The notes beneath the pieces are model-generated. The model was not told the origin of the DNA. It was given only the letters and a program-made list of their open reading frames with translations, and did no database searches. Positions 781 through 27,919 of a stretch of DNA of 58,456 bases are shown one piece after another. Each line of letters starts with the position of its first letter. The stretch's first letter is position 1. The translations under genes and the position numbers were made by a program. Origin of the DNA: Chrysochromulina tobinii (lineage: Eukaryota); assembly GCA_001275005.1 (NCBI GenBank), contig JWZX01003199.1, positions 1 through 58,456 on the forward strand, given 5' to 3'.

Positions 781-1228
781 GTCTGGAGCAGAGAGCTGCT
801 TCTCGAGACGCTCGATCGCCAGCAAGCAGGCCGTACGCAAACGCACGAACCCTCTCGTCCCGTAGGGGAGAATTTCGCCACTCGAGACTGTCGCAAGACG
901 TGTGATCAACACCCGTCACGCTCAATGGTAGGCCAACGATGACGGTCGAGTGCACAACGATACACTGCACGACCACGCGACACCGAAAACTAAACCCCTC
1001 TCCGTTCCCACTACACATTCACACATGTGACCAGAATCCCTGAGATCTTGCTGGACCTCTAGCGAGCCCACTGAGTAGGTATCAGCTGATTACCTGACTC
1101 ATCTCGCGACAAAACGAGCTCCAAAAGCGAGTTTGTGTGCGCCGCGAAGCAAAGCGCGCGCTCGCAAGACACTTTGCTCGCGCGCTCGAGCTCTCCCCCG
1201 TTCTCGCGGAGCGGATTCTGCCAGGGAT

Positions 1229-4200
1229 ATGGTCCAACACAGTTACGAGTCCTCGCCCGCGACCCCATCGGTAAGCAGGACAGCAGCTTGCGTGATAGCT
1301 CGCGCTGATGATTCTCGAGTGCTTGATTGGTTTTCCATCCTGACCGCCGCTTCGTTGGCTGCGCAGGCTAACCGGCGAGCCGTTCCACTCGACTCATACG
1401 AGGCCTTACGACACGAGTTGTCAGTCCATCTCGAGGAGAACGTGCCGTGGAACGTGCTCATAGCTTGCGTGAAGCTGCTGCCACTGCCACTCGAAGCTCG
1501 CTTCACCGCATCGCAAGCCGAACACCACGCAGCGGATCTCCATGTGCCTTCGGGCGCCAAGGACTGGAGCGATGCCGAGCTGAAAGAGTATTTTGAATCA
1601 GGAGGTATGAAGCTGCCGTCAGATGACCAGTTCTTTAAGATTCTCGGCGGTCATTGGCCAAGCTTGCAGCCTGATGACATCCGGATGTGCGCGCGGACGC
1701 TGTACCGAGCTCGTGCTGAGGGCCGGCTCGAGGAAGCCAAGCCTGCCTCCAGAGACGGCGCCCTTGATGAGCCTGCGGACACACAGGCCCCGCGGCACCC
1801 GGGGAGCGCGGGCGCTGCCTCGAGCTCGACTTCAGTGCCCATGGATCTGGACGAGCTTGACTCGCACGGCACGGCTGTGGACTCGTCCAGGACCCCTGCT
1901 GTGGAGAGCTTCTCAGGTCTGTATGCAACGATGCGTGGCCACGAAGCGTTCCGTCTTGAGGCTTTGGACCACCCCGGCGGCAATGCCGTGGGCCCCCTAT
2001 TCGTAGTCTACGCTGGCGTGCCAACACACGGATTCTTCAAGGGTGAGACTGCGAAAATGCCAACGCTCACTGGAACAGCTACCGGGAAGTGGGAGTATAG
2101 CGATCGCGGTGGACAGTGGAAGGTAAGCTGGCCAGAGAACAAAAATCCCTCCCCAGGCAGTATTGCTGTCGTTCGCGTTGACAAGTTCCGCTCAGCTTCG
2201 GCGAACACCGTCGGCGACGATGTCCGGCTACTATCGAGCGCGGTGAAAGCTCAATTTGGTGCTGTCGCGCTGCTCCTGATCCTCCCCACCGCGCCCACGG
2301 AGGAACAGCGTCTTGATCTCAGCAAGTCTGCTGATAACCTTGCCGTCCCTGTAATGGTCATCCGTGTGGACGACTCAAGAAAGATCACCAACCACGGTGA
2401 CCCGAAGAGCTTAAACGTGTTCCTCGCTGCAGACAAGAGCGCCTTGGCCAACCGGCGCGATACGCGTTGCATCAACGGGCAGCTGCAGTCGCAGCCGCCA
2501 CATCAGCTACTCGAGCAGCAGCAGCAGCAGCAACCGCAGGCCCGAGAAGGATGGAACTTGGTCAGCTTAGGACGCAATATTGTTTCTACCATTGTCAACT
2601 ATGTCTCGAATAAGCCAAAGCTCTCCGATGAGCTCAAAAAGGCGATTAAGGAGGGCGATTTCTCGCGAGTTCAAAATCTCCTCTTGGCATCTGCTGATGA
2701 TTTTCAGATCGACCTGGACACCTCGTGCTCGGTACTGGAGACTACTGCTACGCAGCTCGAAGAGCAGTACCCGTTGCTGCTGGTCTCGGCTCATCTCCTT
2801 CAGTCACGTGCGAAGAACGATAGCGCTAGCGGAGCAGAACGGCGCGCCATCGAGGTCGCATGCACAATTGCAACTAGGTACATCACCAACGGCACCTGGG
2901 TGACTCTTGGCGATCCGCCACTCTCACAAGTGGCATCGGCATCTGACCCCACCTATTGGAGAACCTTTCAAGATGTTGTTCTCTCGATCATCGAGGATGC
3001 GCCTTATTGCCACGACGTCGATGGTCTGGTAAGTTCGGCGCGAGTGCTGAAGCGGTGCTACGAGCTCAAGGCCTGCGACTCTGCGGACGCTCGAGCATTG
3101 TGGTCCAAGGTCCTGCAGAGGGTGATACGCATGCCCAATGGCAAGAGCATCCGCCTCGCGAAGGAGCTTGGAAGCGCGCTCAGCGAGTCCCACGTCGACG
3201 GACATACTGTCCATGCCTTTGATAAATCAGACCATCTCGGTCTCGTGCGAGCCTGGCGTGATGACATTCAGTCCATCGACGACTGCTGGGCGCTGCTCAC
3301 TTGTATTGGGCATCTCACTCAACCATCTCCTCAGGCTGTGCGCGAGTTCGAGGACATCTACGAGTGGGTTGCGCAACAAACGTGTGCGCAGCATGATCCA
3401 GATGTGGGTCCACTGCAACTGATTGACTTTGTTGAACGGCTCAGCCGCGTGCTCCAGCTCGGTTCTAGCCAAGTGGACTTCGCCTTGCAGAAGCTGCTCC
3501 AGGGCATGCTGTCGGCACGCAACGAGCCACGCGTCCATTATCAACGTGCAAACGTTGTCCTCCTCGGGCTTCACAAGCGCTTTCATACTTTTTGCCCGTC
3601 ACTATGGAAGGTTGCAGTCGATACGGTCACGGCTCACGTGCGGAAAACGTTCAAGTCACTTCGCCCCGATCACTTGGGTGAGTGGCTAGTGTCGGACGCC
3701 TATAAGCACGTGCGCGTTCCTCAACTTGACGGTGCCCTGGAAAGGCTTCGAGCATCCAATGACTCGACCGACTTTGATCCGTACCTCAAGCTTAAAGAGT
3801 GCATACGCCAGGCCATGCCGACCACGACTCGTGAGCATGATCTTTCGTCGGGGCTAATTTCCAGCCTGCACACGTGGCTGCGAGCCAAACCGACGAGGCT
3901 TACGTCGGGGTTTGGTGCACTTTTGAACAGTGCACCAGATCCAAATGTGGATGCGAGCTATGTTTTGCAGATAACGGATATCCTCAAGGAGACCAAAGCC
4001 AGCATTCGCGATCGCGATCCGCAGTTTCCACTTCAGCTCGCTCTCGTTCTGAGAGGCGTCACTCGGCTACCAAACCTGCGAAACCTGCTGACGCAAGGGT
4101 TGCTTCATCTCGCGGCTGAGTTCATGTGCCCTTCCACCCTCAACGTGCACGCACCAGGCTATGAGTTCCGTGATGTGATCGAATCCTTGACTCGATTACG

Positions 4201-7200
4201 CACGCCAGAGAGTCTGGCGTGCCGTGGCGTCGCAGCAAATATCCTCATCATATGTATGCAGTCCTTCGTCACCCAGACCGTGACCACCGACAATTGGGTC
4301 ACAGTCATAGCAAATGCCAATCACCGCACGGGCCAGGACTACACTTTCCTCTTTGTTGTCGTAAAGGCTGTCACTAGTGCTCTCGGCCCAGATGGAAATA
4401 TCATGGCGGACCTGGATGAGGAGCGGGCTCTTCTACACGAATTGCATGCATCCTTTGGAAGGCAGTTTGCGAGCGTTTGGGATCAAGTGCGGACTGAGTC
4501 CATCTCTCTTTGTCAACTGAAACAGATCCACCCCAATCTGCAACGAAAGGAGTACGACTTTTCCCAGAAATTGACAGCGCTCTTGCGATTGGAGTCTCCC
4601 CCCGTGGCGCAGCTTGAGCAGCAGATCAGAGATGGTGAGAGCATCCTCGTGTGGATTCTTCAGCAAAAGCAGACGGTGCGATCGATCGAGAAATGGGGCA
4701 TCGATAGGTCGCAGATTAGCGGGATCTTCGACCTCTTTGAGCGTGCTGATTCCAAAGACCACACTCTCACCGACCTTCGGCGCGCAGAAGCCTCGTTAAA
4801 GGCGTGGCTACACCCTCTTGGAGCCCCCGAACGTCAGTTCTTCGAGTACTTCAGTGGATTCGATCAACACGACGACATGGCATCACACCAACGACAGTCG
4901 GTGTTGTTCAGCCATTTCCTGGAGCAGCAGCTTCCGCCTGCCACCGACGGTGCGATTCGCACGACGCAAGCGTTAGCTGATGCGCTACGATCCGTCATCG
5001 AGCTGTTCGAGGCCCTGGTGCAAGGTCGCGGGGAAGTTCGCTTTAGCCAGCTCAGAGCTGCAGGCGAAAGGCTTCGAGAGGCAGGACGTACTCCAGACGC
5101 CGAGCTGCGTGTGATCGCTGGCTTCTTTGGAGAGCAGGCTCTGGTCGCCGATCGCGTTGAAAGCCTTCGATCAGTGCTTCAGCTCGGCCAGATAGTGGGG
5201 CCTCTGCGAAAGCTTGTCGATACGCTTGAGCAGTACACGTTCAGATGCAGTCGTGATGACGTCGCCGATGACACATACCACGTGCTGTGCGGCTACGCTG
5301 ACGGCTTGAGCGATGATCGAGACGAAGGTCTGATGCGCGGGCACTCGATGACGGACTATAATGACTTGCGTGCGAACATCCATCGATCGTTGCGTCCCTC
5401 GGGCGATCGCCGCGGTGCCGAGCAGCAGCGTGTGTCAGACCAAGAGCACGGCGAGGAGCTCGCGCTGCTCACACTGTTTGCGCAGCTCTCTGATCACGAT
5501 CGAGTGTGGCGCTTTGTTCTCGAACGCAAGTTCTTTGGCGGTGGCATGGCGCAATTCAAGGAGAAGCTCGAGCTGTTACAGAACCAAGTGACTGGCGTAG
5601 ATGCCGAACGGCTTCTCAACCAGCTGGAGGGTGCAGTGGCTTACCTCTCAGTCGTTGCAAGCCTACGTGAGCACAGCCTTTCGGAAATCCTTGCCGCGCT
5701 CTGGAGCAGCGAGCAAGTGATGCGCGAGGCCCGCCAGGCTGGGAGCGCTCGCTTTCAACAGCTTCGCGGGCTGCAGGAGCACATGGGCCGCCTTGAGGAG
5801 TGGTTCGATAAGGGTCTCGGCGGGCTCGATGCAGTCTTTGCGCAGTTCTTTTGCGTGCTCGCTACAGGATGCTTCGAATTCCACCTTGCGGACCCTCCCG
5901 GGCTCTGGCTGACTTACACGGATCATGATGTCGAACGCACGCTCAAGTCAGACGAGCTGGTTGACTTTGAACACCGTTTGGGCTTCGTGCAGAACGACGA
6001 CAAAATCACCAACCCCGTGAGTCAAGGCACCGACTACAAGTCCAACAGGTGTGCTCGATTCCTCGAGCGAGTTCAAGAGTATCGCAAGGCGTTCGCACTC
6101 ATGTGCGAGTTGTGCGCACTCGGCCATCCGGAGTACCAGTCCATTCCACGTGCGCCCGTTAATCCGGACGAGGTCTCGCAGCTCTCTGTGCAGCGCTTGA
6201 GCCGGGCTCTGAGCGCATGGAAGCGGAGGTTGGAAGAGGTATCAGCGGTGCACCCGTACTTGCGCTTCTATTCGACACGCGAGGCGCAACGTCTTCATCG
6301 GTTGCTGCTTGAAGGATGGCCATGGATTGCGGCGGATGGTTCAGCACAGGAGCTGACCTTGGCGTTGATTCCACTCTTCCAGCGGTCATCGGGTGTGTTC
6401 TCGCGTCTGCTCGATGTCGTCGAGAAAGCTCGCATCAAGCCTGCTGTCCAAGCTCTTGCAGTTGCTGATGATGATTCTGCTGTCGATGGCCCTGCACAGT
6501 GGCCTGCGATAGTAGGTGCTTTTCTTCAAACCGTTCAGCATGGCATGGGCAGCCCGCCGCTCCCCGTTCGTCCGGCCGGAAGCCCGCTTGTCCACTGGCC
6601 CGGGTTGCACGTGCACACGATCGAGCCGTCCTCTGATGCCATGCTTGCGCTCATCTATCGCATCTATCAGCGCTTACCGGAGCCTTTTGAGGTTCTCTGG
6701 TGCTCTGCGACGACCCATCTGCGAACTTTGGAGACCTTTCTTGACCGCGTTCGGCACCATGCTGCAACGGACACCAGCGCTGGGCGCTGCTTCGTGCTGG
6801 TACAGGTCGAGGCATTGGCACCGACTGCTCAGCAGGCTCTGCTGCGTCACTTGCTTGCCTCACGAGACACGGGTGTGCGCCACAATATGCACTGCTTACA
6901 GAGTGCCAGCACCTCGCTGCAGGCAGCACCATGGATTCGCCATCACAAGGGGACAGCTTCGACTGCGGCTTCCGAGAAAGATCAACTTTCCGGGTCGAGC
7001 TTACGCAAATGGGTCGTGGACGGCATGGACTTTAGAGCGGTCACATGCGTCATGGGCCCTTCAGGGAGCGGCAAGACCCATTGGATCAGGAAACGTATCC
7101 TGCAATGGATGCAAGAAGACGAGGCCCGCGCCGTATGCGTGTTCAGCATCACGGAGGCTTTCTCGCTTGAAGCCGTCTCGCAGAAGCTGCAGAGGACCAT

Positions 7201-10200
7201 CTTGAAGGAAGGCAGCTCGACTCAGCTTGCACTGTGCTTCCATCTCAACATGGGCAAATTCCGGACGTACGAGATGCATGAGTGGAAGGCACTCATGGAA
7301 AAGATCAATCGCTTCTTCTTCAGTCTGCTCGTTCTTCGCAGCGTCGAGGATTCCACTGGATTCGTCTTCAACGTACCGCCGGGCAGCCGCTGGGAAGTAA
7401 TCGTAGAGATTCCCGATCGGATCGGCCATCTTGATGAGGCTCCGGCAGACACACTGAGCCAGGATGATGGTTTATGGAAGGAGCTACCTGTGCTTGCTTC
7501 GATTGGCACGTTGCAAAGACCTGCCGATGCATTCGATCTCGATGGAGAAAATACTCGCCTCGTGTGCAAGTACCTCAAGGCATATCAAGACGGAACGATC
7601 GATGAGTTGTACACCTCAAATGGAGGCGGCTATGGCGGGCCCAAGGACGTGATCTTCGTCCTCGACGCGTCAGGCAGCATGGCGGGCGCCCCTTTTGAAA
7701 CCTGCCGTCGATGCCTTCTTGAACTCTGCAGAGGAAAGCTTCAACCTGTGGATCGTGTTGGCGTTGTCGTGTTCAACGGCAGGATCCTCTTAAACGTTCA
7801 GCCAGCGCCGTTGAGTGCCCGGCACCTGGCAAACATCGAGACCCAGTTGGTATTCGTCCAGCCGAGTGGTGGCACAGATTTGTGGGGCGCCATGTTCGAT
7901 GCTGCTGACCTTCTATGCTCGCTTCCTGATCGAAATCCGAGTTGGATGGTCAGCCTGACGGACGGCCATTCCGAAGGTGAAAACATGCAAGCGTGTACAG
8001 AACGCCTTCGCAAGCTCGATGCCTCCAACATCAACGTGCTCTCAATTACGATCAACCTTCAAGACTCTAGTCGTGATCTCATCCGACGCGTATGCGTCGA
8101 CGGTCGCATCGGTACGAATGAGATTGTTCCTGCAGATGGTGGCCTGGAGGCGATCGAGGAAGCGTGGGCTGTCGTCGGCGAGGCCATGACCGTGAGTGAG
8201 AGGGTTGAGCTAGCAGAGGTGACGGATGCTGAATGCCACGCTCTTCTTTCACACTACATGCTGCTACCTCAGAAAAGATGGTCCATGCTCAAGCAGTCTT
8301 ACTGGGTGCGTTACCTCGCGCGCCGATGCCACATCCTTCGCACGTCTGAGAAGTTCAACATGAACGATGGCTTCGAGCGATTCGGCAGCTCAACTTTGAA
8401 GATAATGATGGAAGAGGCGCATCATGCCCTGAGTGATGACTATCGCCACGACTGGGATGCAATCAATCACGAGCAATTCGTGTATTGGGAGGAAAATGGT
8501 GACTCGAAGTGGAGCCTGATCGCAACGAAGCCAAGCGAGATGAGTGTGGAGCGTAGGCAACTTCTCGACGAGCTCGAGCTTCACGTGCCATCTGCTGACG
8601 ATCTTCGCAAGCGCCGCGTGCTCGACAGTCTCCTTGCACGGGGCCTCGGCATCGATGCCGTGCTTCAAGATCGCGCCTTAGAGAGGCGACAGCGCCCGAT
8701 CGTGCGTGATGGCCAGCAATCGACGATAGACGTTGAGATCAATCTTGGGACTATCGCCGCTGTTGATGAGCACCGCTTTGTCCTGACTCTCGACTTTACG
8801 ATGAAGATGCTTTGTATGCACGAACGCATAGAATGCCGTGTGCCTTGCATTATGGAGGGCGAGACGGGTGTGAGCAAGACAGCGCTTACGCGAATGTACT
8901 TCATCCTCAAGAATCTGTCGAGCATGAGCGCGCAGATGCAAGATGTTGATAACCCGCGACTGCGAGTCACTGTGGACCAATTGCGCAATCTGGCAGCCGC
9001 TCAGCAGCCTCAGGATGCCGCCGTCGCCTTCGGGGAGATCCAGGTGGACCCGGTTGTCCGCACTCTGCAGAGTATGGCCCTGAGCCTCTTTTCCTTCTTC
9101 CTCCCTGACGCCGGCTTCCGGTCTGTGCCGCAAGAGGTCTGGAATGACGCTAAACGTCTCGCGACCTATCTTTGTGATAGTGCAGTGGACGGGTCTGCTG
9201 CGGTCAACATTCCGCCGTTTCGTGCCGCGCTCTTGATAGAGCTCAAGCAGGATCCGGGGCTCCTAGTCGACAACGGCTTGTGGCAGGCGGTGCAGACGGC
9301 GTGGAGCCCTGCCTGGCAAGATCCGATCAATGAGCGCTCAGCCGGTGACATTAGCGCCGAAGTGCTTGCTGATCTGCTGCTGTGCTACATCCGCGCAAAG
9401 ACTTCGCTGATGAGCAGCCCTGTTGGCTGGACTTTCCATCAGCTCAATGTGCACGCTGCACTCACACCTGCCGCCATTGAGACGGACCTCGCACCAATCA
9501 TCGAGCTTGGCTTCCGGCTGCAGACGGCTGCTGAGTTGCTTAACTCGCCCCGCCATCGCAACGTCAAACTTTGCATCTTCCTCGACGAAGTGAATACGAG
9601 TAGCACTATGGGCGTGTTCAAAGAGCTCATCGTCGACCGTAGGCTTGACGGTGTCGATTTGCCTGAAAACATCGTTGTCATCGCTGCGTGCAATCCAGCG
9701 CGTGAGAAGCTTGTGCATTTTTCCGCAGCGAACGCACGTCGCGAGGAGCTTGGTAAGGAATGGGCAATGGGCCACTACCAGGTTCACCCACTGCCGCTCT
9801 CGATCGAGCAGGTGACCTGGGACTACGGATCACTTAAGGCAGAGCAGGAAGCGGAGTTCATTGAGAAGCGGATGAGTGCGCTATATCGAGGCGAAGACGT
9901 GCGCTTCCCTTATCCCGAGCAACGTCAGCTTGCTGCACTAATGTGTCGCTCGCAAGATCTGACACGCGCCTTTGCACAGCAGCAGTTTGCTGGCCTGAAG
10001 GAGCGCATAATTGCCGCCTCGCCGCGACCACTCTCGACTGCTGAGCTCCAGCGCATGGATGCCGACCTCAACGCGCGCGCGAGCTCAGTCGTCTCTCTGC
10101 GAGACATCCAACGCGTGTTCGCGCTGTTCCGATTCTTCGACAATTTGCTGCAGACGCACAATGGCGAAGCTCATTTCTTCATGGAGGGCGGTGACGATCC

Positions 10201-13200
10201 TGCAAGTGCCCCCGAGCGTCGTCGCCGGTCCATGCTTCTCACAATCGGTGTGGTGTATTACCTGCGCCTCTCAACGGAGCAACGCGTTAGCTTCGAGTGC
10301 GACTTGCATCAGATGCTCCGAGATGAGCACAACTTACGGCTAGATAAAGTACTGACCGAGGCCATGGATGCGCTTATTCAGACAACCGAGCTTGAGCAGG
10401 GTATCGCACGTACCACAGGTCTCAAGGAAAACGTATTCATGGTCGTCGTGTGCACCTTGGCACGCATTCCTCTCATGATTGTACGTGCAGGCCACTTCCC
10501 TCTCCCACCGCCCCACGCCATGTGGATGGTTGCCGACTCACAGCTCTCCGCCTTCCGCAGATTGGTCCACCGGGATCCTCTAAGACACTGGCCGTCACCG
10601 TCGTGACTCAGAATGCGAAGGGCGACCAATCCAAGGCCCGGTCATTCTACCGGACGCAAAAGCGGCTTCTCAGCTTCCATTATCAGTGTAGCCGTCGCAG
10701 CACGAGCACGGAGATCGAAGCCGTGTTCAAACGAGCCGAGGACAAGCAGCAAATGACACACGGTGATACCTCGTGCTTTGTCTTCATGGACGAGGCCGGT
10801 TTACCCGAGGAGCAGCGCGAAAGCCTCAAGGTTCTTCACTACTACCTCGAAGATCACATGTCTAGGCCAGCCAAAGTCGGCTTTGTTGCCATCACCAACC
10901 ACGCACTCGACGCGGCCAAATCGAATCGCTGCGCAATTCTTCTGCGCGCGGAGCCTGACCATCGCGAGCTCATGCAGATCTGCATTGGCGGCCTCGGCTC
11001 CGAGGCAGAACAGCGGCGCCTACTCGCACAGACTGTAGTTGGCCTCGACGAGCGCCTCCCCGATGTGCTCGACAGACTCTGTTTAGCGTACCAGGATCTA
11101 ATGCGCGAGGAGCGGGAGCTCGCGTGGTTCAACACGTTCTTTGGCCTGCGTGACTTCATGCACGTCATCAGGCTGCTCGCGCGCCTGTCCAGTGGCTCTA
11201 CGATCAGCCTCGGAACCATTGTCCACGCGCTAGAGCGCAACATGAGTGGCGTAGAGGAGGCCGATCAGCTTCAGCTCATCAATTTCTGGCGTCGCCGTCT
11301 TGGTGCCGGTGACAAGCTTCGCATGGCCGAGCTCCGTAATCCATACACGCTGCTCCGCGAGAGCCTATCCGAGCAGGCACAAGCTGAGCGGCCGATAAGC
11401 CGCTACAAGCTCCTGATCGACACAACGGCCGATGATTCCATCCTTCGACTTCTGCATGCGCGGCGTGACCTCGACGTGAGTACGGACGAACACCGTGGTT
11501 CGATCATCCTCAAACTCAGTGACTTCCGTGAGGACACTAGCCTGCAGCAGGTGACGCTCGTGAGCAGCGTCAAAACAGCAGCTGAGAAGGGAGAGGTTGT
11601 TGTGCTCTCGCACACTGAACCCGTCAACGAGAGCTTTTACGATCTATTCAACCAGCATTTTCAACGGCAAGAAGACAGGCACGCGCGAGCACTCGTGAGT
11701 TTGACCGTCTCGCCAGGGGGTATTAGGATGGACATCACCGTCGGTCATGTTGCTGTCAACTCTTATCACGCCAACATAGCCGTGGGCTCGCATTCCAAAC
11801 TGTGCCGCGTCCATCAGTCGTTCCAGAGTGTGGTTCATATGCGCCTCTCCGAGCTTCGCTATGCGCCCGCCCCTTTCCTCCATCGCTTCGAGAAGTACCG
11901 ACTCTCGCATCGCAATCTGCTCGATGCGCACGTTGCGGAATATCCGAGTCGGTTCCGCAGTTTTGTCTCCAAGGTGCTCGCCAAGCTACACAGCCTTGTG
12001 GAGTGCATTGAATCGCTCAGTCTCTACGGGTACAAGGCGCAGCAAACGCTCGAGTCAATCCTCCTATATTCGGTGTCCACCCTGGGGAGCAACTTCTGCA
12101 ACGTCTTGACGCCCGCGTTTGCGACCTCGATCGCATCTGCAGCTGCAGCTGAGCTCCAGGCTGATCCAGAGGCGCTCGCGCTCCTGCAAGATGGTGTGCA
12201 GGAAATCGGCGAATCTGTTCGAGAGGCGATGCACTTCCTCCTGTCGTCCAATGAGTCAGGATCTGCAACGTCGCGGTTGGCTGTTGCGATCACTGGCCAG
12301 TGGCTGCTGCAGACTTCAGTGTCACGGCTGATCCAAGTGTGCACACCTGAAAGGCTCTACAAGCACCGCGCCGTTGTCCCCTTTGAGATGCTCGACACGT
12401 ACTTCAGGTGCCAGGAGCACTTTTCGCTGAAGCGGCTGCTGCAAGGCATGGTGAGCACACGTACTGCACAGAGGATGGTTGTCTACACGCGCACAACTGC
12501 GTCGCTATTATCCCTGCCGGCCCATGGCCTCGAGAGCTCAGAGGACGAGAGCTCAGCTTCGGAAATGCATCTGCTTGAGGCCCTCATTTGTGAGCCGTTC
12601 AGCCTTGAACTTCCTGATGGCGAAAACGAGATCATTACCCTGGCTGATTTTTCCCTCTGCCCACTGTCGCTGCTTACCACGCAAGAGGCTCTCCTGGCAT
12701 GCCTTCGCTCCTTCCGAAGCGCTGCAAGCTCAAAACGAGTACTCTTATTCTTCATCGATATGGCGGAGACGCCCACGAGCCGCGTAAATTTTGTTCGAAG
12801 TAAGGTGGACGAGCTCTGTAGCGATATGGCTTCCAACAAGTCCATCGTGGTTATCATGCATTTCCCTGCATCGAATGTCTATGTGCTGCCATGCTACGAC
12901 ACAACATTCTGTGATCAGTGGCAACCTGTGTTCCTGGACTCCATCAGCGAAGAGGCCAGTGCACTCGGTGCCCTCGACGTGAGAGAGTGGCTTAAGCTCG
13001 GCGCGTCCAATGACTACCAATCGCTCGTTGATGTAAAAGCGTGGGACCTCATGCCCGCTCTCCAGGGCTGGCTGAATACTGCGCTGACGACTGCTGCGAG
13101 CCGCATTGAGTATGCACGGGGGTGGAATGGGCAAAGTCCTGGAGACTTCAATCCAATGCAGCCAGTGCCCGTCCAAGCCCGCGTGAAGCTTCTGGAGGCT

Positions 13201-16200
13201 CTCATGTTGAAGAAGCTGAAAGACCCCCAAAACGGTGTTGAGAAGACAATCGAGCAGGTGCTGTGCACACGCTATTCGATGCTTTGGACCGACGGAGATC
13301 ATCTTATGATCAGGGATCGGGTGCAGTCCGCAACGCAGCTCCTCGCCTCTGGGCAGCTGCGTGTTTCTCTTGTGGAGGCAATCACTGGCGAGGTGCGAGA
13401 GGCTTTCTGCAATTATCTCACCCTCATGATCTGCAAGATGAACGAGCAGCTTAACTTGGACTTGCTCGACGAGATCTCGCTTTCAACGCTGGATCCTCAC
13501 GTCCAGGGTGTATTTCTTCGCTGCCTCACGCTGTTGCCCATCCCGCCCATTCCCGAGCTCAAGCTGCTCACTCAGCCGCGCCGCATTGTCGTCACAAGCC
13601 CACCTCCTCAAGCAAACTCGATGTTTCCGTTCTTTCACCTCGTCTCGGCGCTCTTTAGCCAGGCGACGGGTGAAGTGTTTGCAACTGCGGAGGGCCACAG
13701 TCTCTCTGAGAGGCACGCCGCAGCTGCAGTCGAAGATAAAATCAAAACATCCGATTCGCCACTTGCAGAAGTGGTTCGTTGGATGGCTGGTATTGACGTC
13801 ACATGCGAGCTTCCAGAAGAGCTGTGGAAGCGTTATGTGGCTCATTTTGTAAGCAAGCTGTGCTGTGGCTCGCCAATCGTTGAGCAGCGGATGGTGATTG
13901 CTTGGCTGCGCAACCGCTGCTACAGCATCGATGCAAAGCGGCCAGTGATTGCACTGCATATTGCAGCGCATCGTAACGAGGAGATGATCAAAGGCTTGGC
14001 TGCCATGCTTCGGCCGCTGAGTGTGCTCATGGAAAGCATGGGAGCAACGTCATCAGCGATGATGGAGGCGAAAATGGAAGATTTGGGGGATGCCGCCGCA
14101 ACTCGAGAGGTCGCCGCGAGTTTGCACGCCGCCATCGTGCAGGAGTTCTACAGGCAGATGGATCTTGCTGTTGCCAGCTCTGAGCAGGACCCTCAGCAGG
14201 CAGTCAAGTGGGCCAACGCATTTGGGTTGGTCGAGCTTCGTGACTTAGTCGTCGATAGCCAGGGTTCAAATATCCCCGAGAGCGCAACGAGCCTGCTCGT
14301 GATGAGCGTAGTGCACGCTGCTGCCAAAAGTGTCCGGGAGGGCGACGATTGCGCTTCCTTACGCCGTTTCGCCCAAGAGGCCAAGCTCGCCATCAATGCT
14401 CAACTGCGCCTCGAGAGCGTTTGGCGCATCACACAGCGGATCTATCCGGATCGAACGGGACTGATGCAGCGCATTTTGAAGCTTTGGTGCAGCACGGCTC
14501 AGTTTGAGTGCTCGCCGCTCAAGCCTGAGGTGCGCTCTGATGTGGGATTCTTGCTGAATACCCTTGTTCATGAGCACCAGCTACCCGAGACATTACGCAC
14601 TTATGTTGTCGAGTCCTTACTCTCGAACTCGCGGCTTGTCGGCACTCTGTGCGACTACAACGTCATGGAGCGTGATGCCGACTCGAGCAGCAGCGCCGAA
14701 GTGCTTGAGCTACTTGAGAGCCATCTCGTCGATCAGCTCGCAACAAGTCCTATTGCTGAAAGCTGGGAATGCGCGTATGTGCCCCCGTGGTTCAAGCAGG
14801 AGGGTGCGAAGCTCGATCGACCCGTCGCACACGCGTACTTCACTGTTGTACTCAAGCAACTGCTTGCCCAGCGGTCAGGAAAGCTTGAGGAGTCCATTGG
14901 CCTATACTGCAGCCTGAAGTCACAGCTCGATGGAATGATAGAAAGCCGCAGTCGTGCTGCGACGACTGTCTCTGTACGGCAAGCGCGTCTCCGAAAGTTG
15001 GAGCGTAAAGGGCCGTTGCGAGTGCCTCACTTGCGTGCTATCACCCTTGCTGCCTGCAAGCTCTTGGTGGTGCTTGACCTAGGCTCACGGCTCGCGGCTA
15101 CTGCTCGGCACGATCGCGATCCAGCGGAACCGTTGCTAGAAGGTCCAGAAGCGCAATTGATGAGCGAAGCGCCCTCACTGCAGCTCCAGGCACTTGTGGA
15201 GAGCCATCCGGACTGGGGGCATGAGCTCATGAATGCTTTAGCAGGAGAGGTCCGCAGCCGCGAGACGATGATCAAGTTCTTACGCGCACACGGCCGGCGG
15301 CTTTTACCTGCGGTCCTGAGCCAATGGTCCGAAATACCGGCGGCTGCAGAGGAGTGCGTCGGTCGGCATGCCAAGTTGGCATTTGCATTCGACCCTGACA
15401 ATGTGCTCCACACCACATACTGCTCACTAGCGGAATCAATGACTGACCGCGATTTGCTCATTGCGAAGGTCCGAGCGTTGTGCAGTGCGAGCGCGGGCGT
15501 GGACAGACACAGGCTCGACGTGATCATGATGATGTTCGCTGCAATCTATTACGAACGCAGCACAATCAACAATCATGCGGTCATGAGTGCGCTGGATGCG
15601 CTGCAGAACGAGTTAAAGTTGTCCCCAAGTGCAATGCGAGTCTTCCGTGGCTTTCTCCAGCCTGAAACTCTCATTGCTTTTCAGGAGCCCGGTATGCCGA
15701 GCGATACGCTATATGATCTGCTGAAGGCACCACCGGCGGAGCTTCAAAGCCGAGAGGATCGTGAACTGCAGTCGTGCATCATCGGCATGATCGCCCTCAC
15801 CCTCGGATCCAACGAAGCCACAACCCACCTTGCTACGCACATCCTCCAGCCAGACCGGCTTGTCAACACTTTTGGCGTTGGGAGCCAATACTCACAAGCG
15901 ATCGGGTCAGTCCATTACGACTGTGGGTGTGAGCTTACGTTTGATGGCGACGTTCCCGCGAATCGTCCGCGACGCGAACCGCTCGACCGCCACTCACGCT
16001 ACTTCGTCCTTTGGTCGTCCTTTGCGGCGCTGGGCGTGAGCTTGGTCACACAGCCGGAGTCGCAGCACACCATGCGTCGTGTGCTTTCGCTTCCGGGGCA
16101 GGGCCTTCGCGCAGGCGTCCTCAGCTTTTGTAAGGCGCCATGGCATCATTTGGGCGTGAAGCTTCAGCTCAACGCTGAGAGCCAGTGCCAGCTCGTCCTC

Positions 16201-19200
16201 CGTGCACTCGAGCATCACCGCGAGAGCTCGTTCCAAAGCCATCGCGGGTATGCCAACGTTTTCCACAGCATTCCAGCAGTGCAGATGTATGAACGCCAGA
16301 TGATGATCTCATTCCATCATGCTCGTCAGCGTCTGCCGGACTACATCGCCCTCCTTCGCCGCCGCGAGGCCGCGTCTCAGCTCTCGAGCCGACTCGACGA
16401 CTTCATCATAGAGCACCCGCCTCTGCACGTGGCAGTCCGTCCCTCAGTGCCACCCATCACGCCCAGCGTCATCTTTGAGGATGAACTCGAGCTTGTAGTC
16501 GGTAGGGACCCTACAGGAACGCGTGAATTGGCCATGCTACTCACCTTTACGCGCAAGTGCCGTCATTTGCGCTTCCTGTGGGTGCTCCCTGACTTGATCG
16601 AGTTCTACCAATTCCTGCACGTGCAGCTCGAGTACATCCTGCTTGAAGAGCAGGCCAAGCAGAAAAGCATTGGTGCGCTGCTCGAGTCGATGGCGACAAA
16701 GCGCGGTAATGAAGGCACCCGAACGCGCTTTAGCCAGAACGACGCGCGCCGCATCACCCAGCTTTGGCTTCGTGTAAAGATGGGCTTCAATCAGTTCGTG
16801 GCTGAAAATCAAGCCATCGGTGTTGGGGCGTGCGCTGCGAATCAAGAGGCTGCGGCTGCAAATGCGGCGGCACATGCGCAAGCTGCACTAGAAGCTGTCG
16901 AAGCGACCGTTGGAGGGGACGTTCATCGAGTAGCCGAGGCTGCAACGGCGGCTGCAGCTGCAGCTGCAGCTGCCCGCGCTGCTGAACAGCGGCTGACTCG
17001 AATCTCGCCTTTGGACGATTCTCATCCTATATGGCGTTTCCTGAGCACGAATGAGGATGAACTGTTCGACGACGGCGGCGTCCGCTTCAATGGCCAGGTG
17101 TTAACTTGCGACAGCCTGTTCCTTGTCATTAAGCGCATGGTTGCGATGCACAATGATTTGGTATTGGAGCTTTCCGAGCACGGTCTGGCGACTGCTCACG
17201 ACAAGAAGCCGATCAAACCGCTTGAGCTCAACACGGCAAGCGTTGCACTTGGCGACGTGCGACCTTGGGACCTGCACCTCGGCGTCGATGAAAGCAAGAG
17301 CCTCGCTCAGCAGACAGCGCAGATGGAGAGGCACTTGAAGGAGAGCCTGCTTCATTTGGATCACGCTGGAAGCTTTGCCAAGTTGGTGCAGCTCCACTGG
17401 CAACGTCAAAGCCAAACGTCAAAGACACCGTTTGATTTCGATGCTATCCGCCGAGAGGTGAATGGCCTCTACCTCGATCGGCTTGCAATAATTGAGGACC
17501 CGTCTGCCCACTTGCGCCGTGTATTTCGATTTCGACGGACGTCAGCAGGCAACGAGGCTGCCTCAGGAGACGAGGCGCTTGCTACAGCAGTTCGGTTGCA
17601 AAGCGACCTTACGCGTTTGCAGCACGCCCTGAGTGCCTCGCACACGCTAGGTGACGAGGAGACAAACGGCATGCATATCCTATACTTCCGCATGTTTCAC
17701 TCGCTCGAGCATGACCAGGTGGCCAAGCTGCTTCGTGGGCTTGACATGGTCGCCACCATTTGGATTCGAGCCGTCTCGGCTGGCGCTCATGATGAAGACG
17801 CAACGATTCGGACGCAACTCGGTGAAATGTTTCCAGATGTCAAGAGTGACGCCGAGCTACTGCAGCGCGTGCACATTGAGCTCTACGAGGAAGAGCAGTG
17901 CAACACCCTCCTGCAGGTGCGGTTCACGCAGCTCTCATTGTTGCTGAACTACCTTCGCATCTACCTTTCGTCGCAGGACTACATCTTCGCTCGCCTGCCC
18001 TTTGTGCTTAAGGCGCGGTGGGACGACGATGTCATCGTGACCCTCAATACGATCGAGCGCACGTACGACACAGACCGCTCGAATGACCGCTTACCTCTCT
18101 CTGCGGCGGCTGCGCAGCTCGAGTCAGGCATCGTTGACTACGAGCAGGTCTTCAGCTCCGAACCGGAGACGCCGCTGCATAGATTCATGGTCAACTGGGC
18201 AGGGAGCGAGCAAGCGCTGTACGAAGAGCTGCCACTGATGCGCGAGTTGCCCAAGAGAATTGCGCTGCAGCACTACGTCGAGCTGCGTAAGCTCCTGCAC
18301 CGCTGGTCGCATAGGCCTGTGACAGCGGCACCGATCGCGGAGAAGTGGGCATGGCCCTTAATATTCAACTCGCAGAAAGTTGCCAAGCCGGCAGCGACCG
18401 TTGAGCCGTCTGAGGACATTGCATCTCGCTGGGTTCTCTGGTTTGAGGACGGCGATGACCTTATAGATGCCAACACGGCAGGACAAGTAAGAGAGGTGCT
18501 GGACGAAATCATCAGCGCGCTGGCGTCAGAGGATCGCCGCATGAAGAAGCTCGAGATGAACGCCATACGTTGCCAGTTCCGCTGGCGCTATGTGCTCGGC
18601 TGTCGAAGGCGAAGGGCCGAGAAGGCTGTGGCGCAAGCAGCACTGGAGGCGGCACACTCTGCTTTCGAAAAGCTCAGAGGTGCAACTGACAAAGAGCTTC
18701 CAAGTGCGATTGCAGCTGCTAGGCCGCATGTCAGTGCGTTTGCTGAGCTGGCGGAGCTCCTACTGCAAAAGCAGGCTCGGATGGCAGAGATCAATCGCAA
18801 TTTGTCGGAGGCACGAATGAAGACGATGCGATGGTATGTACGAGTATTGGCTACTGCTGTGGGCTTCTTGATTTTGGCGATGGTCATTCCGTTGCTCATA
18901 AGCTCTGGCGACGCTGCGCTGGATTCGACGAGCCATCCTGAGCTTGAGAGCGCCACGCAGCAGGGGATCTCTATTGCTCGACTGACAGCATCGGATGATT
19001 TCCAGCTCGACTCCATCATCGAAGGCTTTGACGCAAGATTGGAAAAAGCATCCATGGAGATGAGCCATGGCCTTGATGCTGAAGAGAGCGGACCGCCTTT
19101 GGCAACTCCAGAGGTTGAGGGGCCTACTACTCAGTTGGCAGGGCCGACGGCACAGTCGATGCTGCAGCAGACGGACGCCACGGACGCAACGAGTTTGCTT

Positions 19201-19494
19201 CGCATTTTCGGGTTGATCGTGGGGCAAGGATGTGCATGGTGGTTTGTATGGAATAAGTTTTGTAACGAACGGCATGGCGATGCCCCGAAGTCGATGCTGC
19301 GACAGCTGACAAGCGTGGTGTTCATCCTTTTGCTGCTTCTCGGAGCATGGTGGTCCGTTTCGAGCGTGGTCCGCTGGGACGATCGCAAGAGTGTTCGTGA
19401 TCGCTTGAGTCACCTCGTTTCGCTCAGGGAGGCTGGACTGGTGACTGAGGAATACTATCTCGAACGTGAGAGGGAGCTCCTGCAAATGATCTGA
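1229..19494 (+). CDS. RNF213: Giant RNF213/mysterin-like AAA+ ATPase, join(1229..1270,1367..10480,10561..19494), ~6029 aa
   Basis: ORFs 1133..10606 and 10450..19494 join in frame across intron 10481-10560, giving RIPLMI|IGPPGSSKT. A colinear series of RNF213-type motifs is present: MGPSGSGKT; FVLTLDFTMKMLCMHERIECRVPCIMEGETGVSKT; FLDEVNT; IAACNP; YQVHPLP...WDYGSL; VSLRDIQR; YQCS; FMDEAGL; GFVAITNHALDAAKSNR; FFGLRDF; PFLHRFEKY; LPDLIEFYQFLH. The symbol means family-level similarity, not proven orthology. Confidence 0.88.
1271..1366 (+). other. Probable intron 1 of the RNF213-like gene (96 nt, in frame, no stop codon)
   Basis: GTAAGC donor at 1271, CTGAC branch motif near 1340, GCGCAG acceptor ending at 1366. 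Because it is 3n and stop-free, retention cannot be excluded. Confidence 0.65.
10481..10560 (+). other. Intron 2 of the RNF213-like gene (80 nt)
   Basis: GTACGT donor and CCTTCCGCAG acceptor. Removal restores the frame immediately before Walker A GPPGSSKT. Confidence 0.92.
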
Positions 19495-20147
19495 GCCAGT
19501 CATCGGGGCGGATCGAGCGTGTGCCCGTGGGCTGTGGCATGTTGAAGAGATGCCGTGCGCGCATGACCATGAGCCGTGATCGTGCAAAGGCCGAGGCGCG
19601 CGCGCGCGCGCGCGTCAAGTGTGTACTCCTGTAATTGGTATTGCTAGTGAGGTCTCTGACACTCTCTGAACTCCAAGTGGTCAACGCATCGCATGGCGTG
19701 GGGTCAGCGGGTTTTCCCTGCCGCGCCGCCCCCCTCGCGGTGCACCCACGGATTCCCACGCTTGCCGTCGGTGAGCGCCGCAGTACAGTGCCGACCATCT
19801 CGTGTCGCCCCGTTTTCACACACACACACACATGTACCGACCTGATGCGGGCGAGCTCCAGAGCTCTCCCAGTCCAACTAGGAATCCGGGATCTACCTGT
19901 GACGCCTGACGCCCCGCTGATGAGCCAACACCACACCGCTCCACATCACACTCGACACTCGACACAGGGCGGACGCGATTCCGTTCTATCTGCGACGTGC
20001 CACGCAGCGCGCACTCCATCTCACATCATGCGTCATCTGGTCACACACGGCAATGCAGTGTAGCGCTCACCACAGCGCCACGACACGTGCGCCGGCGCCG
20101 GTTGGCGGCGCAACGCGCCTCTTGCCGCAGCCGGCTGGATTTAGAAT

Positions 20148-20963
20148 TTAGAAGCCGTAGGCGTCGCCGCCAAGGACCACGTCGCCGCCGAGCACGGCCT
20201 CCGAAGTCATACGCTGGTTGATCGAGTGCGGCACAACGCCCGCGGTCATCGGGAACTCGACCGGCGCGGTGTTGACGATGCGCACGACGTTGCCCGAGCC
20301 CGGCGTCTCGAGGATGCAGAAAAAGGGCCGGTCGAGGCCATCCTCGGTGTACAGCTCGATCACCTGCTTGTTGTTGTTCGGGCCCTGCAGCAGCTCGATG
20401 CGCGCGTTGAGCGGGCGGCCGTCGGTCTTCAGAAGAACCTCAATGCTGTCCACAGTCGGATCGAAGGGGTACGTGCGCAGGGCACCACCCTGGATGGTGG
20501 CGGACGCGGCAATGCACTCAGCCGACGGGTTGTCAACCTGATCGGCGATGACGTTGGCAGCGATCGGGAACTCGATCTGGCCAATGTTGCGGATGGCAAC
20601 GGTGTTGGGGCCGCGGGGGGTCTCAATCGTCGCGCAGAAGGGACGCAGCTGGCCATTCTCCACATACACGCGCATCTTGCACGGCGTGTTGTCGGGCCCG
20701 TGCCAGAGCTCGATGTCGGCATCGAGCGGACGGCCCTCAGTGCTGAGCACGACCTGCACCTGCTCCACCGCCGGGGAGCGGTACGACCAGGTGCGAAGCG
20801 AGCCGCCCTGGATGAGGATGGCCGAATCGGCCGACGGAGGCATACGGGTGGGCACCACGCCACCAGTGTAGCCAGTGTAGGAGCCCGGGGGCGCGCTGAC
20901 GCCGTATTGCATCATCGGGGTGCCCATGCGGAGGCCAACGGTGCCAATCATGGTTGCGAGCAT
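20148..20963 (-). CDS. Algal protein of unknown function with an internally duplicated domain (~271 aa)
   Basis: ATG at 20963 (MLATMIG...). Two homologous halves: IQGGSLRTW...TEGRPLDADIELWHGPDN and IQGGALRTY...TDGRPLNARIELLQGPNN. Strong GC3 codon bias. Confidence 0.85.
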   Translation of the reverse strand: MLATMIGTVGLRMGTPMMQYGVSAPPGSYTGYTGGVVPTRMPPSADSAILIQGGSLRTWSYRSPAVEQVQVVLSTEGRPLDADIELWHGPDNTPCKMRVYVENGQLRPFCATIETPRGPNTVAIRNIGQIEFPIAANVIADQVDNPSAECIAASATIQGGALRTYPFDPTVDSIEVLLKTDGRPLNARIELLQGPNNNKQVIELYTEDGLDRPFFCILETPGSGNVVRIVNTAPVEFPMTAGVVPHSINQRMTSEAVLGGDVVLGGDAYGF

Positions 20964-21668
20964 GTCGAAGGCTTCGTGAGAAGGGGTTCGTGTCCGGCGA
21001 GGAATCCTCATCGAAGGAGATCGAAGCTCCAAAAGGATCCTCAATTCCATCCTGCAACCCAGCATAACACAACCGTCCTGCTCATTTTCGGAGCCGTGCC
21101 GGGGCATGCCGGTCCGTCGCTCGAGACCTGTGCCAGCTGCATAACTCTTGTCACTTGTGTGAACCGCGTCCGACACATAAGAAACCCCACGCGTTACAAG
21201 TATAGTATGAAGGAACCCGCGGCCGCGCGCGCGCGCGCGCTGCGCGTAGAGAGTCCGACCCCAAAGCGGACCGTGCAACCATGCAAGATGCATTGCACCA
21301 AGCACGCCCGCCGATGGCCCATGCCAGGCAGGACGCTCCAGCTGCCGGCCCCAAGATGTCAGTGACTCTCACCCCATCGCGCGGGTCTCCACTCTCCACA
21401 TGCGCACATGACTTGGTCGGGCAACTATAGGTTGATCAGACAGCCTTCAAACTGCGCTCCGCTCCATCAGTCTTAATTACTTGCTCCATCATGCCGTGTT
21501 CGTTTACATGTATTGGGATGTCCGTCACAATCTGCTGCGAGATTGCGATCTGCCCTTTCGAACTTGCGCTTTCACCTGCCGTTACCTCAAGCCAGATCCA
21601 CGCCGTCCTGAGCACTTATCCATGCAAGGCTGTTCACGCCCGGTAAGGCCGTTCACGCCCGGTAAGGC

Positions 21669-23300
21669 TCACCAAGCGAGCTGCTTGTGCCTCACCCTGA
21701 TGAGTTGATTGCCCAGGCACGCTTGCATCGCCTCACACAAGGATGCCAGCGGGGCATGGCCATACGTCAACAAGTTATGCTCGCCTGCGCTCAAGAGGGA
21801 AGGAGCATACTCGCCCGTACCGGTCGCATACTGCCAAGCGTTGAAGGCCGAGTTTGCCTTTCGGTACTTGAACTTCGCGACTCCCTCGGAGAGCATCTGG
21901 ACCATCTTTCGACTCGTCAGCCAGTAATCCACAAACTTGTTGAAGCCTGCGGCGAGCTTGCGATGCAGCATGTGGCCCATGCTAGCCTGGAGCAGGTGCA
22001 GATTCCTGGCGCGGCTCTCGGCGAACAAGAGCCACGAGTTCCACCCCTTGGCCAGTTGCTGCTGGGGCAGTCGCCTCAGCGCCTGGCGGCAGATTTCGTC
22101 GATTCGCTCCGCGCGCTCCTTGCGTGCGCGGCTGCTGTCGCTCATGTCGCCCTCGGGGCTGCTCGGGGGTGTCATCTCATCGACAGTTATTTCGAGCAGG
22201 GGCATGCTGGGCTGAACGTAACCCTCGAGCTCAGCATACTGCTGTCGCACGATCCTCGCCTTCGTGGCAGCCCTCGTGCGGCAATGCTTCATGCTTGTGG
22301 TCTGCGCATCGCGCTCGTGCCGTAGCTCATCGCCCTTCTTCTGCATCGCCTTGAGGGCTGCCGTGCATTCCTTGGCATCGAGCCTTCCGCTGCCGTCCGC
22401 GTCGATCACGTGAAAGAGCTCAGCGGCCTGCATGTGTGCGGAGGCGTCGAGTAACAGCCCACTGACCATATTTAGAAAGTCGCCCTTCGTCAGACCTTCC
22501 GAGCTGCTCGCAAACTGACCCACAAAGTCCGCCGCTTTGATGCGCCGGCGCGTGCAAGCGATGCCGAGCTGCACCTCCAGATCCGCCTCCATCTCGCGCT
22601 TCAGCCGCGTAAGCTCCGCCTCCCGCCGGTTGGCATCTTCCTCGAGGCCTTCTCCCTCGGCCGCGATGACGGCGATCTCGCGCAGCCTGGTAGCTTTGGC
22701 TGACTGGAGTTTGCGCACCTCAGCCTGTTCCTTCTGAATCGCAACAGCAACAGACTTCAAATCGACCAAGATCGTTTTGAGCTCGTTCGAGCTGATCACG
22801 CCCGACTTGTCTTTGTCATGAGAGTCGAAGAACGCGTCGATCTCCTTTGTTTCGAGATCGAAAGGTTCCTTGGGCCGGTGCTTTGCAAAGAGCGCTTTGA
22901 TGCGCAAGCGAAACTCGGTCTTCAGCACGCTGCCGCTGTTTGTTGGGTCCCACGCCCGGAGCTGTGCCGGTACATCGACATTCGCTTCAGCAAGAAGCTC
23001 ACGCAGCTGCACCGCCACCCCCTGCTTGCGAGGCTTGTTGTCGCCCTCTAGCGCTTCGGCCTCGGCTATGAGCTCGCTTGAACTCAGCTTCGTGACCACC
23101 GTGATTGCAGGTGCAGCCTTGCGAACGTTCTGGAGCCCGGCGAACGTGCCTCGGATGGGAACCACAGCCGGGGGAGAGTAGGCACCCAAGGGGGCTTCCC
23201 CTTGTGGTTTGAAAGAGCGCAGCTTGGCAGATTTTTTGAAATAGCGATGGCTTTGGCGCGGCGTCCAGATGTGAGGAGCGGCTGCAGTCGGCGAAGGCAT
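21669..23300 (-). CDS. EF-hand and coiled-coil protein with Sfi1-like Trp repeats (543 aa)
   Basis: EF-hand loops DKDKSGVISSNE and DADGSGRLDAKE. C-terminal repeats LAKGWNSW / LAAGFNKF / AFNAWQ. Confidence 0.8.
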   Translation of the reverse strand: MPSPTAAAPHIWTPRQSHRYFKKSAKLRSFKPQGEAPLGAYSPPAVVPIRGTFAGLQNVRKAAPAITVVTKLSSSELIAEAEALEGDNKPRKQGVAVQLRELLAEANVDVPAQLRAWDPTNSGSVLKTEFRLRIKALFAKHRPKEPFDLETKEIDAFFDSHDKDKSGVISSNELKTILVDLKSVAVAIQKEQAEVRKLQSAKATRLREIAVIAAEGEGLEEDANRREAELTRLKREMEADLEVQLGIACTRRRIKAADFVGQFASSSEGLTKGDFLNMVSGLLLDASAHMQAAELFHVIDADGSGRLDAKECTAALKAMQKKGDELRHERDAQTTSMKHCRTRAATKARIVRQQYAELEGYVQPSMPLLEITVDEMTPPSSPEGDMSDSSRARKERAERIDEICRQALRRLPQQQLAKGWNSWLLFAESRARNLHLLQASMGHMLHRKLAAGFNKFVDYWLTSRKMVQMLSEGVAKFKYRKANSAFNAWQYATGTGEYAPSLLSAGEHNLLTYGHAPLASLCEAMQACLGNQLIRVRHKQLAW

Positions 23301-23565
23301 TGAGCCTAGCGACGCCCGATTCCTAGTCTGCTTTCGCGATGCCGATCCTCTGCTCCTCTGTGCCGATCCTCTCCTGGATGCCTCGTGCGTCGGTCATCGG
23401 AGCACACGAGGAATCCAAGAGTTTCAAGTCTCAATTTCGCGGCCAATTTTACAAGAACTTTGATTACGAGCGTAGGGTGCGCGATCCGTCGTCCGTGTCG
23501 ACCGACTCGTCGCGTGTGTGGGTACCATCCTGACACACACTGATGAGACAGCAAGCATCTCGGTC

Positions 23566-24466: not shown

Positions 24467-24637
24467 TTTTCGTGTGAAGGCGCGATTCTTCCCGGAATCA
24501 ACACAAGACTCAACCGGAGACGTCAAAAATATGCTTCTCACGATTGTTTTCCGGCCACGCTTCCAAGAAGTCCCATCAGTGTGTTTCTATGGCTGCAAGT
24601 GGGGAAAAAGGCGAGCTTATTTCTCTCGCCACCCGCC

Positions 24638-27525: not shown

Positions 27526-27919
27526 CGATGGCTGCGGCCAGGATGCGAAGTGGAAGCACGGATTAGGTGATTGGGACTGCTCTGACCATGGAACTGAATG
27601 CTGAATGTCTGAATCAGGCAGGCACTGAGAGCTGAAGATCTGCATGGATCTGGTCAAGATGTACCGTACTCGTGATTGTCTCATGGATGGTCTCTACATT
27701 TCTGTCCGGTCGCCAGTGTACGCACGCATGCTTGTGTTTGACAACTTCAGGTCGGCACGTGCCATGTGGGTTCTTTTGAGGCGTCCGAACCACCAAACTT
27801 AAAGATTAGAAACGACAGCGGGCGCCCCCTGGCCAAAGTTGTGTCCCAAAACCCGTGCGACGGCCATTTCTCTTTTAGCTGAGGCCTGCGCGGTACGCGC
27901 ACGTCACTGAGCGGCTCCG

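Follow-up and report, generated by a model that had tools for sequence, protein, structure and literature searches.

RNF213 (mysterin) and midasin (Rea1/Mdn1) are the known systems closest to the protein described here. PMC7311170 describes the RNF213 ring as an auto-inhibited, regulated switch and not a processive motor: ATP is bound but not hydrolysed by AAA2, the active sites are those of AAA3 and AAA4, and each rigid body consists of one small domain and the next large domain. ATP binding alone has been described as activating the ligase (10.1101/2021.05.10.443411), and ATP hydrolysis as being required for the coats that RNF213 forms on pathogens (PMC11549300). Target sensing and ring mechanics of RNF213 are presented as open questions (PMC7311170; PMC11549300).

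AAA+ proteins and vWA domains are described as long-standing partners (PMC7159879), and three arrangements are worth comparing with the algal protein: 1) Midasin likewise unites a series of AAA domains and a MIDAS vWA in a single chain, but its MIDAS domain is C-terminal, is separated by a linker of ~2,300 residues and docks at the ring centre (PMC13036017, PMC8837202), whereas the algal vWA lies inside AAA2 on short linkers; the part of the midasin linker that is unstructured and precedes the MIDAS is given as about 517 residues long (PMC8837202). 2) The MoxR-vWA pairs (NorQ-NorD, ternary conflict systems) also combine an AAA+ protein with a MIDAS vWA, with variable effectors in conflict settings (PMC7159879), but they are prokaryotic and made of separate chains, with a homohexameric ring and a vWA finger in the pore (PMC13036017), whereas the algal protein is a single eukaryotic chain with tandem AAA domains. 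3) The integrin alpha I domain is a vWA inserted in a larger scaffold, with a MIDAS affinity that responds to force (PMC8837202), but it is extracellular, its host is a beta-propeller, and no ATPase is present.

The protein is encoded in the window, i.e. the whole 58,456-nt stretch of Chrysochromulina tobinii contig JWZX01003199.1 that was analysed. It shares with animal RNF213 a homologous AAA core, the Walker pattern of AAA2 to AAA4, the fold of the E3 module and a similar giant size, but differs in having a vWA domain in AAA2 and hydrophobic C-terminal stretches, and in that RING, RZ finger and CBM20 were undetected. What appears to be new is the placement of a vWA within the small domain of AAA2 in an RNF213-like ring, where it defines a clade and is apparently exchangeable; no description of a vWA in RNF213 homologues was found in the literature searched, which covered main texts and few subscription journals. 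The algal branch would offer a natural experiment, with a well-understood, single-site, mutable grip in the ring through which any coupling between binding and ring state would be directly measurable. It also represents a case in which a dynein-type ring and a MIDAS were paired separately in evolution, in a geometry unlike that of midasin.

Gene structure and RNF213-like scaffold

Two long ORFs, 1079-10606 and 10396-19494 (+), were found from RNA contigs to be a single gene (Table 1), with intron 2 explaining the change of frame between them. One RNA contig of 18,307 bases covers 1149-19631 with two introns only. The RNA evidence consists of contigs from 4 of the 14 RNA runs listed, and such contigs drop rare isoforms. 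The start codon was provisionally placed at the first ATG of the spliced frame.

Table 1. Features of the RNF213-like gene and of its ordinary neighbours in the window
Feature	Position	Strand	Basis or remark
RNF213-like gene, three exons, 6,029 aa	1229..19494	+	ORFs, RNA joints, spliced translation; start codon putative
Exons of the RNF213-like gene	1229-1270, 1367-10480, 10561-19494	+	
Intron 1, 96 nt, GT..AG, in frame	1271..1366	+	Joint in 3/4 RNA runs
Intron 2, 80 nt, GT..AG, just 5' of AAA4 Walker A	10481..10560	+	Joint in 4/4 RNA runs
AAA2 Walker A (GPSGSGKT)	7055..7078	+	Weak profile match, mouse 6TAX 1424-1549 (E 0.12); motif survey
AAA2 Walker B strand, without acidic residues, as RNF213 AAA2	7232-7249	+	Motif survey
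Putative first helix (H5) of AAA2 small domain, left flank	7547..7591	+	Model helix 207-221 after last core strand
Inserted vWA domain, about 184 aa	7643..8194	+	Pfam, model, motifs
MIDAS ligands	D 7664, S 7670, S 7676, T 7874, D 7961	+	
Last vWA helix running into the AAA2 small domain junction V-S-x-x-x-E	8147..8209	+	Model helices 406-419, 422-428
Putative H6 and H7 of AAA2 small domain, right flank (ECHALL ... YWVRYLARR)	8225..8326	+	Model, alignment
AAA3 Walker A (GETGVSKT)	8858..8881	+	Motif survey
AAA3 Walker B (IFLDEVN), intact	9575..9595	+	PDB match, motif survey
AAA4 (Walker A, Walker B, sensors, arginine finger) to AAA5 arginine finger, intact	10564..11895	+	
RNF213-type E3-module scaffold	15352..17526	+	Model, Foldseek
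Conserved D-C motif (HYDCGC)	15913..15930	+	D in 38/42, C in 34/41 relatives having the region
C-terminal tail, two hydrophobic stretches (18832-18888, 19303-19359), short final helical hairpin	18832..19491	+	Hydropathy scan
EF-hand ORF	21669-23393	-	Ordinary eukaryotic neighbour
SHIPPO-repeat ORF	27911-29467	+	Ordinary eukaryotic neighbour
Ankyrin ORF with U-box-like finger	30280-31257	-	Ordinary eukaryotic neighbour
Aldo-keto reductase ORF	45646-46662	+	Ordinary eukaryotic neighbour
ShK-domain ORF	54946-55917	-	Ordinary eukaryotic neighbour

The first-pass annotation, made from the sequence alone, had proposed that a MIDAS domain sits in an RNF213-like scaffold, and this assignment of the scaffold is borne out by PDB matches, Walker layout and the fold of the E3 module. 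Mouse RNF213 was the best PDB match for both halves of the protein, and no midasin chain was among the PDB matches listed for the AAA regions. The dynein-like, RNF213-type layout is present, with Walker A only in AAA2 and full motifs in AAA3 and AAA4. Of the six AAA units of RNF213, AAA1, AAA5 and AAA6 are degenerate; in the algal protein AAA5 matched RNF213, and the AAA1 region did so only through the profile of the sister group. The subfamily differs from that of animal RNF213: a protein of the RZ branch scored 509 bits against mouse, as against 74 and 88 bits for the two ORFs of the window. Across 29 vWA carriers, the Walker, sensor and arginine-finger motifs of AAA3 and AAA4 are kept. The residue before the lysine in AAA3 Walker A is S in 29/29 carriers and G in 12/12 sisters without vWA, but the change goes back to a single event in a common ancestor and so cannot count as independent evidence of coupling.

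The E3-like region (residues 4650-5720) was modelled from an 18-row alignment with pLDDT 72.9 and pTM 0.44. In Foldseek the top 9 matches to this model were all RNF213; the model matched human RNF213 4320-4979 with Z 23.0 (rmsd 5.0, 537 aligned), the next match having 7.9. No RING was found in the protein with Pfam, nor was there a CBM20 match or, at E up to 1, a zf-RZ match, though relatives carry PF20173; the RZ pattern was also absent from the protein, this pattern being weak and matching 2 proteins only. With neither RING nor RZ finger detected, ubiquitin transfer by the scaffold is unproven. A homologue search with the E3-like region returned 1 protein among 7,993 candidates. The C-terminal tail gave a weak GvpG match below the Pfam cut-off, and from its hydropathy it is likely to be a membrane anchor.

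The N-terminal arm (1229-4700, +), in which no Pfam domain was found, differs from that of a close relative (P0167) by 17-34% per 200 residues; over the AAA core and the vWA, the two proteins differ by 3-10% per 200 residues. This divergence echoes the fast evolution described for the N-terminus of primate RNF213 (PMC11549300).

The vWA domain and its junction with AAA2

A complete MIDAS site had been claimed at 7646..8190, and all five ligands (DxSxS...T...D, as defined in PMC13036017) are indeed present at D2114, S2116, S2118, T2184 and D2213 of the protein. The four motifs quoted in support of that claim, DVIFVLDASGSM at 7646-7681 with the DxSxS motif, DRVGVVVFN at 7751-7777, GGTDLWGAM at 7868-7894 and VSLTDG at 7949-7966, are all in frame within ORF 1079-10606 (+). 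The spaced MIDAS pattern matched once in the real protein and was found in 3/5000 shuffles. The motifs lie where first annotated, and the domain ends slightly later than stated there, its last helix reaching about 8194-8209. It scored 36.1 bits with Pfam VWA (cut-off 23.8, E 9.5e-9) and 34.2 bits with VWA_2 (cut-off 27). In an AlphaFold2 model of the region, built from a 72-row alignment with a mean pLDDT of 89.5, the segment folds as a compact, Rossmann-like vWA that matches the vWA of the inter-alpha-inhibitor heavy chain over 187 residues (Z 22.8, rmsd 2.3). It is not spliced out, as contigs of all 4 RNA runs examined cross it without any joint. The five MIDAS ligands are predicted to bind a divalent metal and, through it, an acidic residue of a partner. 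Matches in the ESM Atlas (VWA8-like and AAA_5 clusters) all scored under 0.9 and serve as leads only.

In the model, the insert comes after the first helix past the last AAA2 core strand and before the next two helices, which we have putatively labelled H5, H6 and H7 of the small domain from the model. The left-flank helix could be aligned in relatives of both the vWA-less and the RZ type by profile-profile alignment, in which the two flanks are contiguous both in the sister group without vWA and in the group that bears an RZ finger. The vWA would accordingly lie in the H5-H6 loop of AAA2 and, from the order of secondary structures and the analogy with dynein, is predicted to stand at the outer rim of the ring.

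To compare spacing, 281 proteins were collected in searches that included two limited listings, one of the top 150 among 1,289 matches and one of the top 120 among 423. Both flanks were found in 108 of them, and a vWA lies between the flanks in 56 and is absent in 52. The distance between flanks is two-peaked, with 1-42 residues in 44 proteins, 55-158 in 8 and 180-260 in 56; all but one of the 56 long gaps hold a vWA, as does one shorter gap, where it is truncated, and none was found in gaps of up to 100 residues among the 108 proteins. The counts of 56 carriers include the window's own protein and near-copies, 49 inserts remaining below 85% identity. The site of insertion is identical in all 56, and a vWA profile search found no second site in the 154 proteins with an AAA core. 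The N-terminal linker has 6-13 residues, and the C-terminal linker has 11 residues in 42/51. On the right flank, the first R of the RR pair is invariant (56/56 rows) and the second is conserved in 55/56. At the junction V-S-x-x-x-E the V is 93%, the S 80% and the E 77% conserved, and the last vWA helix that runs into it is a candidate allosteric lever.

A clean insertion of about 180 residues, as first suggested, is borne out by the adjacent flanks of the relatives, the two-peaked spacing and the shorter mouse protein, in which the anchors E1537 and Y1831 of mouse 6TAX are 294 residues apart as against 457 in the algal protein, i.e. mouse RNF213 is 163 residues shorter. The comparison with mouse rests on this anchor spacing and on profile bridges, in place of a residue-by-residue alignment to human or mouse RNF213 across the junction, as the PDB alignments stopped short of mouse 6TAX 1562-1727.

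Distribution of the insert and exchange of its vWA class

A FastTree tree was built from AAA3-AAA5 with the insert left out, using 116 of 154 rows (36 of low coverage and 2 duplicates were dropped). All 33 carriers, together with 2 rows of undetermined insert state, form one branch with a support of 99. The groups represented are diatoms, a pelagophyte, a chrysophyte and a haptophyte, with Seminavis robusta, Thalassiosira exigua, Chrysophaeum taylorii, Ochromonas danica and Prymnesium parvum among the named carriers; Triparma retinervis (via cluster membership) and a record labelled Ectocarpus fasciculatus also carry the insert. Some carriers have the UniRef name 'VWFA domain-containing protein'. 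The nearest named relative of the window's protein in the tree is that of Prymnesium parvum, with 60% identity over 850 columns. The rows sister to the carrier branch in this tree belong to Pinguiococcus and to sponges and have no vWA, and the domain is absent too from amoebozoan, fungal and rotifer relatives. The survey of protist homologues called for in the first annotation therefore shows that the vWA marks a whole algal branch and is not a one-off, and the objection that it might be a routine feature of non-animal homologues was not upheld, since it is not general to them and no published description was found in the literature searched. Because vertebrate RNF213 is absent from the tree and the root was not inferred, a single gain is the simplest reading but not a proven one. 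A search with one query found no relative of the algal protein in viral contigs.

The vWA-less subfamily of sponges (Oscarella, Amphimedon, Oopsacas) and Pinguiococcus is the nearest branch and shares the region of the D-C motif with the algal protein, but its sponge members have a loop of 16-31 residues at the site of the insert, and several members of the subfamily carry SAM domains. No characterisation of this subfamily was found in the literature searched. In one vWA-less protein (P0191), a different insert lies just upstream, at about 2210-2400; by eye it comprises a UBA-like stretch and a cysteine-rich finger, and it gave no Pfam match. An apparent DASGS in P0021 was rejected as a vWA.

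Selection on metal binding is indicated by the inserts, which average a pairwise identity of only 0.30 and yet keep a complete MIDAS in 52 of 56. With identities of 0.30 for the insert and 0.29 for the left flank, the insert does not vary more than the flank, and no arms race on it is apparent. Of the other four inserts, one is truncated and three (P0010, P0056, P0117) have another class of vWA at the same junction, which Pfam recognises as VWA_4 in two of the three and which BLAST does not significantly match to the common type. These three proteins derive from gene calls on metagenomes. They nest within the carrier branch, and in their flanks identity to a carrier of the common type (type A) reaches 55-67%. 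An unrelated vWA class at an unchanged junction means that a MIDAS-type grip is retained at the site with a changed surface, which is what a specificity module would be expected to show. One swap to the second class is shown, and two are likely: the tree of the flanks needs two swaps, with a single origin not rejected (p-AU 0.148), and the core tree rejects a single origin (p-AU 1e-94) only if P0020 continues P0056, a link that rests on contigs of equal size and source and on the reading frame of the P0056 tail. In another carrier sequence (L001), an apparent GT..AG intron at about 652-711, seen in DNA only, lies exactly before the first vWA strand; such an intron could ease domain exchange.

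The C-terminal modules vary. Among 26 other long proteins of the vWA branch, some of them partial, 9 carry additional Walker A motifs, between one and three of them, towards the C-terminus. These nine (P0020, P0024, P0195-P0197, P0200-P0202 and P0207) end in one to three further AAA domains, which we take to be of the CbbX/SpoVK type; Pfam AAA_lid_6 was matched in several, and in eight a short cysteine- and tryptophan-rich tail follows. The D-C motif region is common to the window's protein and vWA-less relatives, and was matched by 0/26 of the other long vWA-branch proteins, the Prymnesium sister being among those that did not match. Either repeated loss or regain by recombination would give this pattern. 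The motif appears to lie about where RNF213 has its RZ finger, and its cysteine is a candidate alternative catalytic cysteine, which suggests that the RNF213 E3 scaffold might work independently of an RZ finger.

Possible roles of the vWA in the ring

Our main reading, with a probability of about one half, is that the vWA is a ring-coupled, metal-dependent grip facing outward on a defence-type RNF213-like ATPase, its hold being set by the nucleotide state. It would work as follows: i) a divalent metal at the MIDAS would bind an Asp or Glu of a target protein, ii) the vWA would ride, pointing outward, on the rigid body made of the AAA2 small and AAA3 large domains, iii) ATP binding at AAA3 and AAA4 would move this body, strain the last vWA helix and thereby alter affinity as in integrin I domains or, alternatively, target binding would free the auto-inhibited ring, and iv) the C-terminal module would deliver the output: in this protein an E3 scaffold of RNF213 type, close to a likely membrane anchor, and in relatives other modules. 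In an integrin-like lever, control of the MIDAS is transmitted through the last vWA helix, and the termini of a vWA lie opposite the MIDAS. Force is described as raising MIDAS affinity in both integrins and midasin (PMC8837202). By analogy with animal RNF213, from which it is borrowed, the setting is likely to be defence against intracellular invaders, and the branch would represent a candidate cell-autonomous defence family in bloom-forming algae.

A bolder version, which we hold only tentatively and consider rather improbable as a whole, is that the branch is an undescribed RNF213-like immune lineage acting as a modular receptor, in which the rim MIDAS recognises invader proteins and has been swapped for an unrelated vWA class more than once, and the ring signals to variable C-terminal effectors, here an E3 scaffold using the D-C cysteine instead of an RZ finger.

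A convergent pulling device had been proposed at first. Its convergence is supported, with an origin separate from midasin; pulling of the midasin type is disfavoured by the short linkers, the site in the AAA2 small domain and the switch-type Walker layout of RNF213. In a remodeller like midasin or MoxR, the MIDAS would grip a substrate and movement of the ring would pull or twist it off a complex. The recurrence of vWA partners in the MoxR/midasin AAA+ group (PMC7159879), the catch bonds described for MIDAS under load (PMC8837202) and the intact AAA3 and AAA4 motifs are in keeping with it, and since hydrolysis is required for RNF213 coats on pathogens (PMC11549300), the algal protein may do some mechanical work, perhaps as a short lever stroke at the rim. 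But midasin and NorD reach the pore via a vWA finger, and the midasin tether is long (PMC13036017, PMC8837202), whereas the algal linkers are short and the model is a minimal vWA, with no long insertion that could form a pore finger in it or in the length survey; the ATPase rate of RNF213 is also given as tenfold below that of a processive machine (PMC7311170). We therefore judge remodelling unlikely, at roughly one chance in five.

Slightly less probable still is a self-assembly contact, in which the MIDAS would bind an acidic residue of a neighbouring copy or of another arm of its own chain and so build coats or lock the ring. RNF213 coats are described as growing cooperatively with a need for the ATPase (PMC11549300), the RNF213 ring as having regulatory insertions (PMC7311170), and the insert is kept throughout the branch regardless of the C-terminal module. 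A fixed self-contact is hard to square with an unrelated vWA class between unchanged flanks, and no candidate acidic loop was identified.

There is only a small chance that the vWA is a passive adaptor, i.e. an ordinary binding domain in a tolerant surface loop, uncoupled from the ATPase cycle. The AAA2 H5-H6 loop of Dictyostelium dynein tolerates insertions, other relatives such as P0191 have inserts nearby, and AAA2 itself lacks the Walker B acids; but a conserved C-terminal junction of near-fixed length would be needless for a passive tether, and the single position used throughout the carriers also speaks against it. Finally, the idea that the insert is an artefact (intron, mobile element or assembly chimera) draws on the metagenomic origin of many homologues and nothing more, and its chance is negligible, having been refuted by the spliced RNA contigs that keep the vWA and by its occurrence in named genomes and proteomes whose carriers form one tree branch.

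Other ORFs in the window are ordinary eukaryotic neighbours (Table 1). A gene of the guanylate-binding protein family (24281-27133, +) is found 5 kb downstream, and animal GBPs also coat pathogens; the closeness of the two genes may be due to chance. Directly downstream of the RNF213-like gene, on the opposite strand, lies a gene for a pyrenoid shell protein (20148-21368, -; Pfam DiatomPyrShell, E 9e-88).
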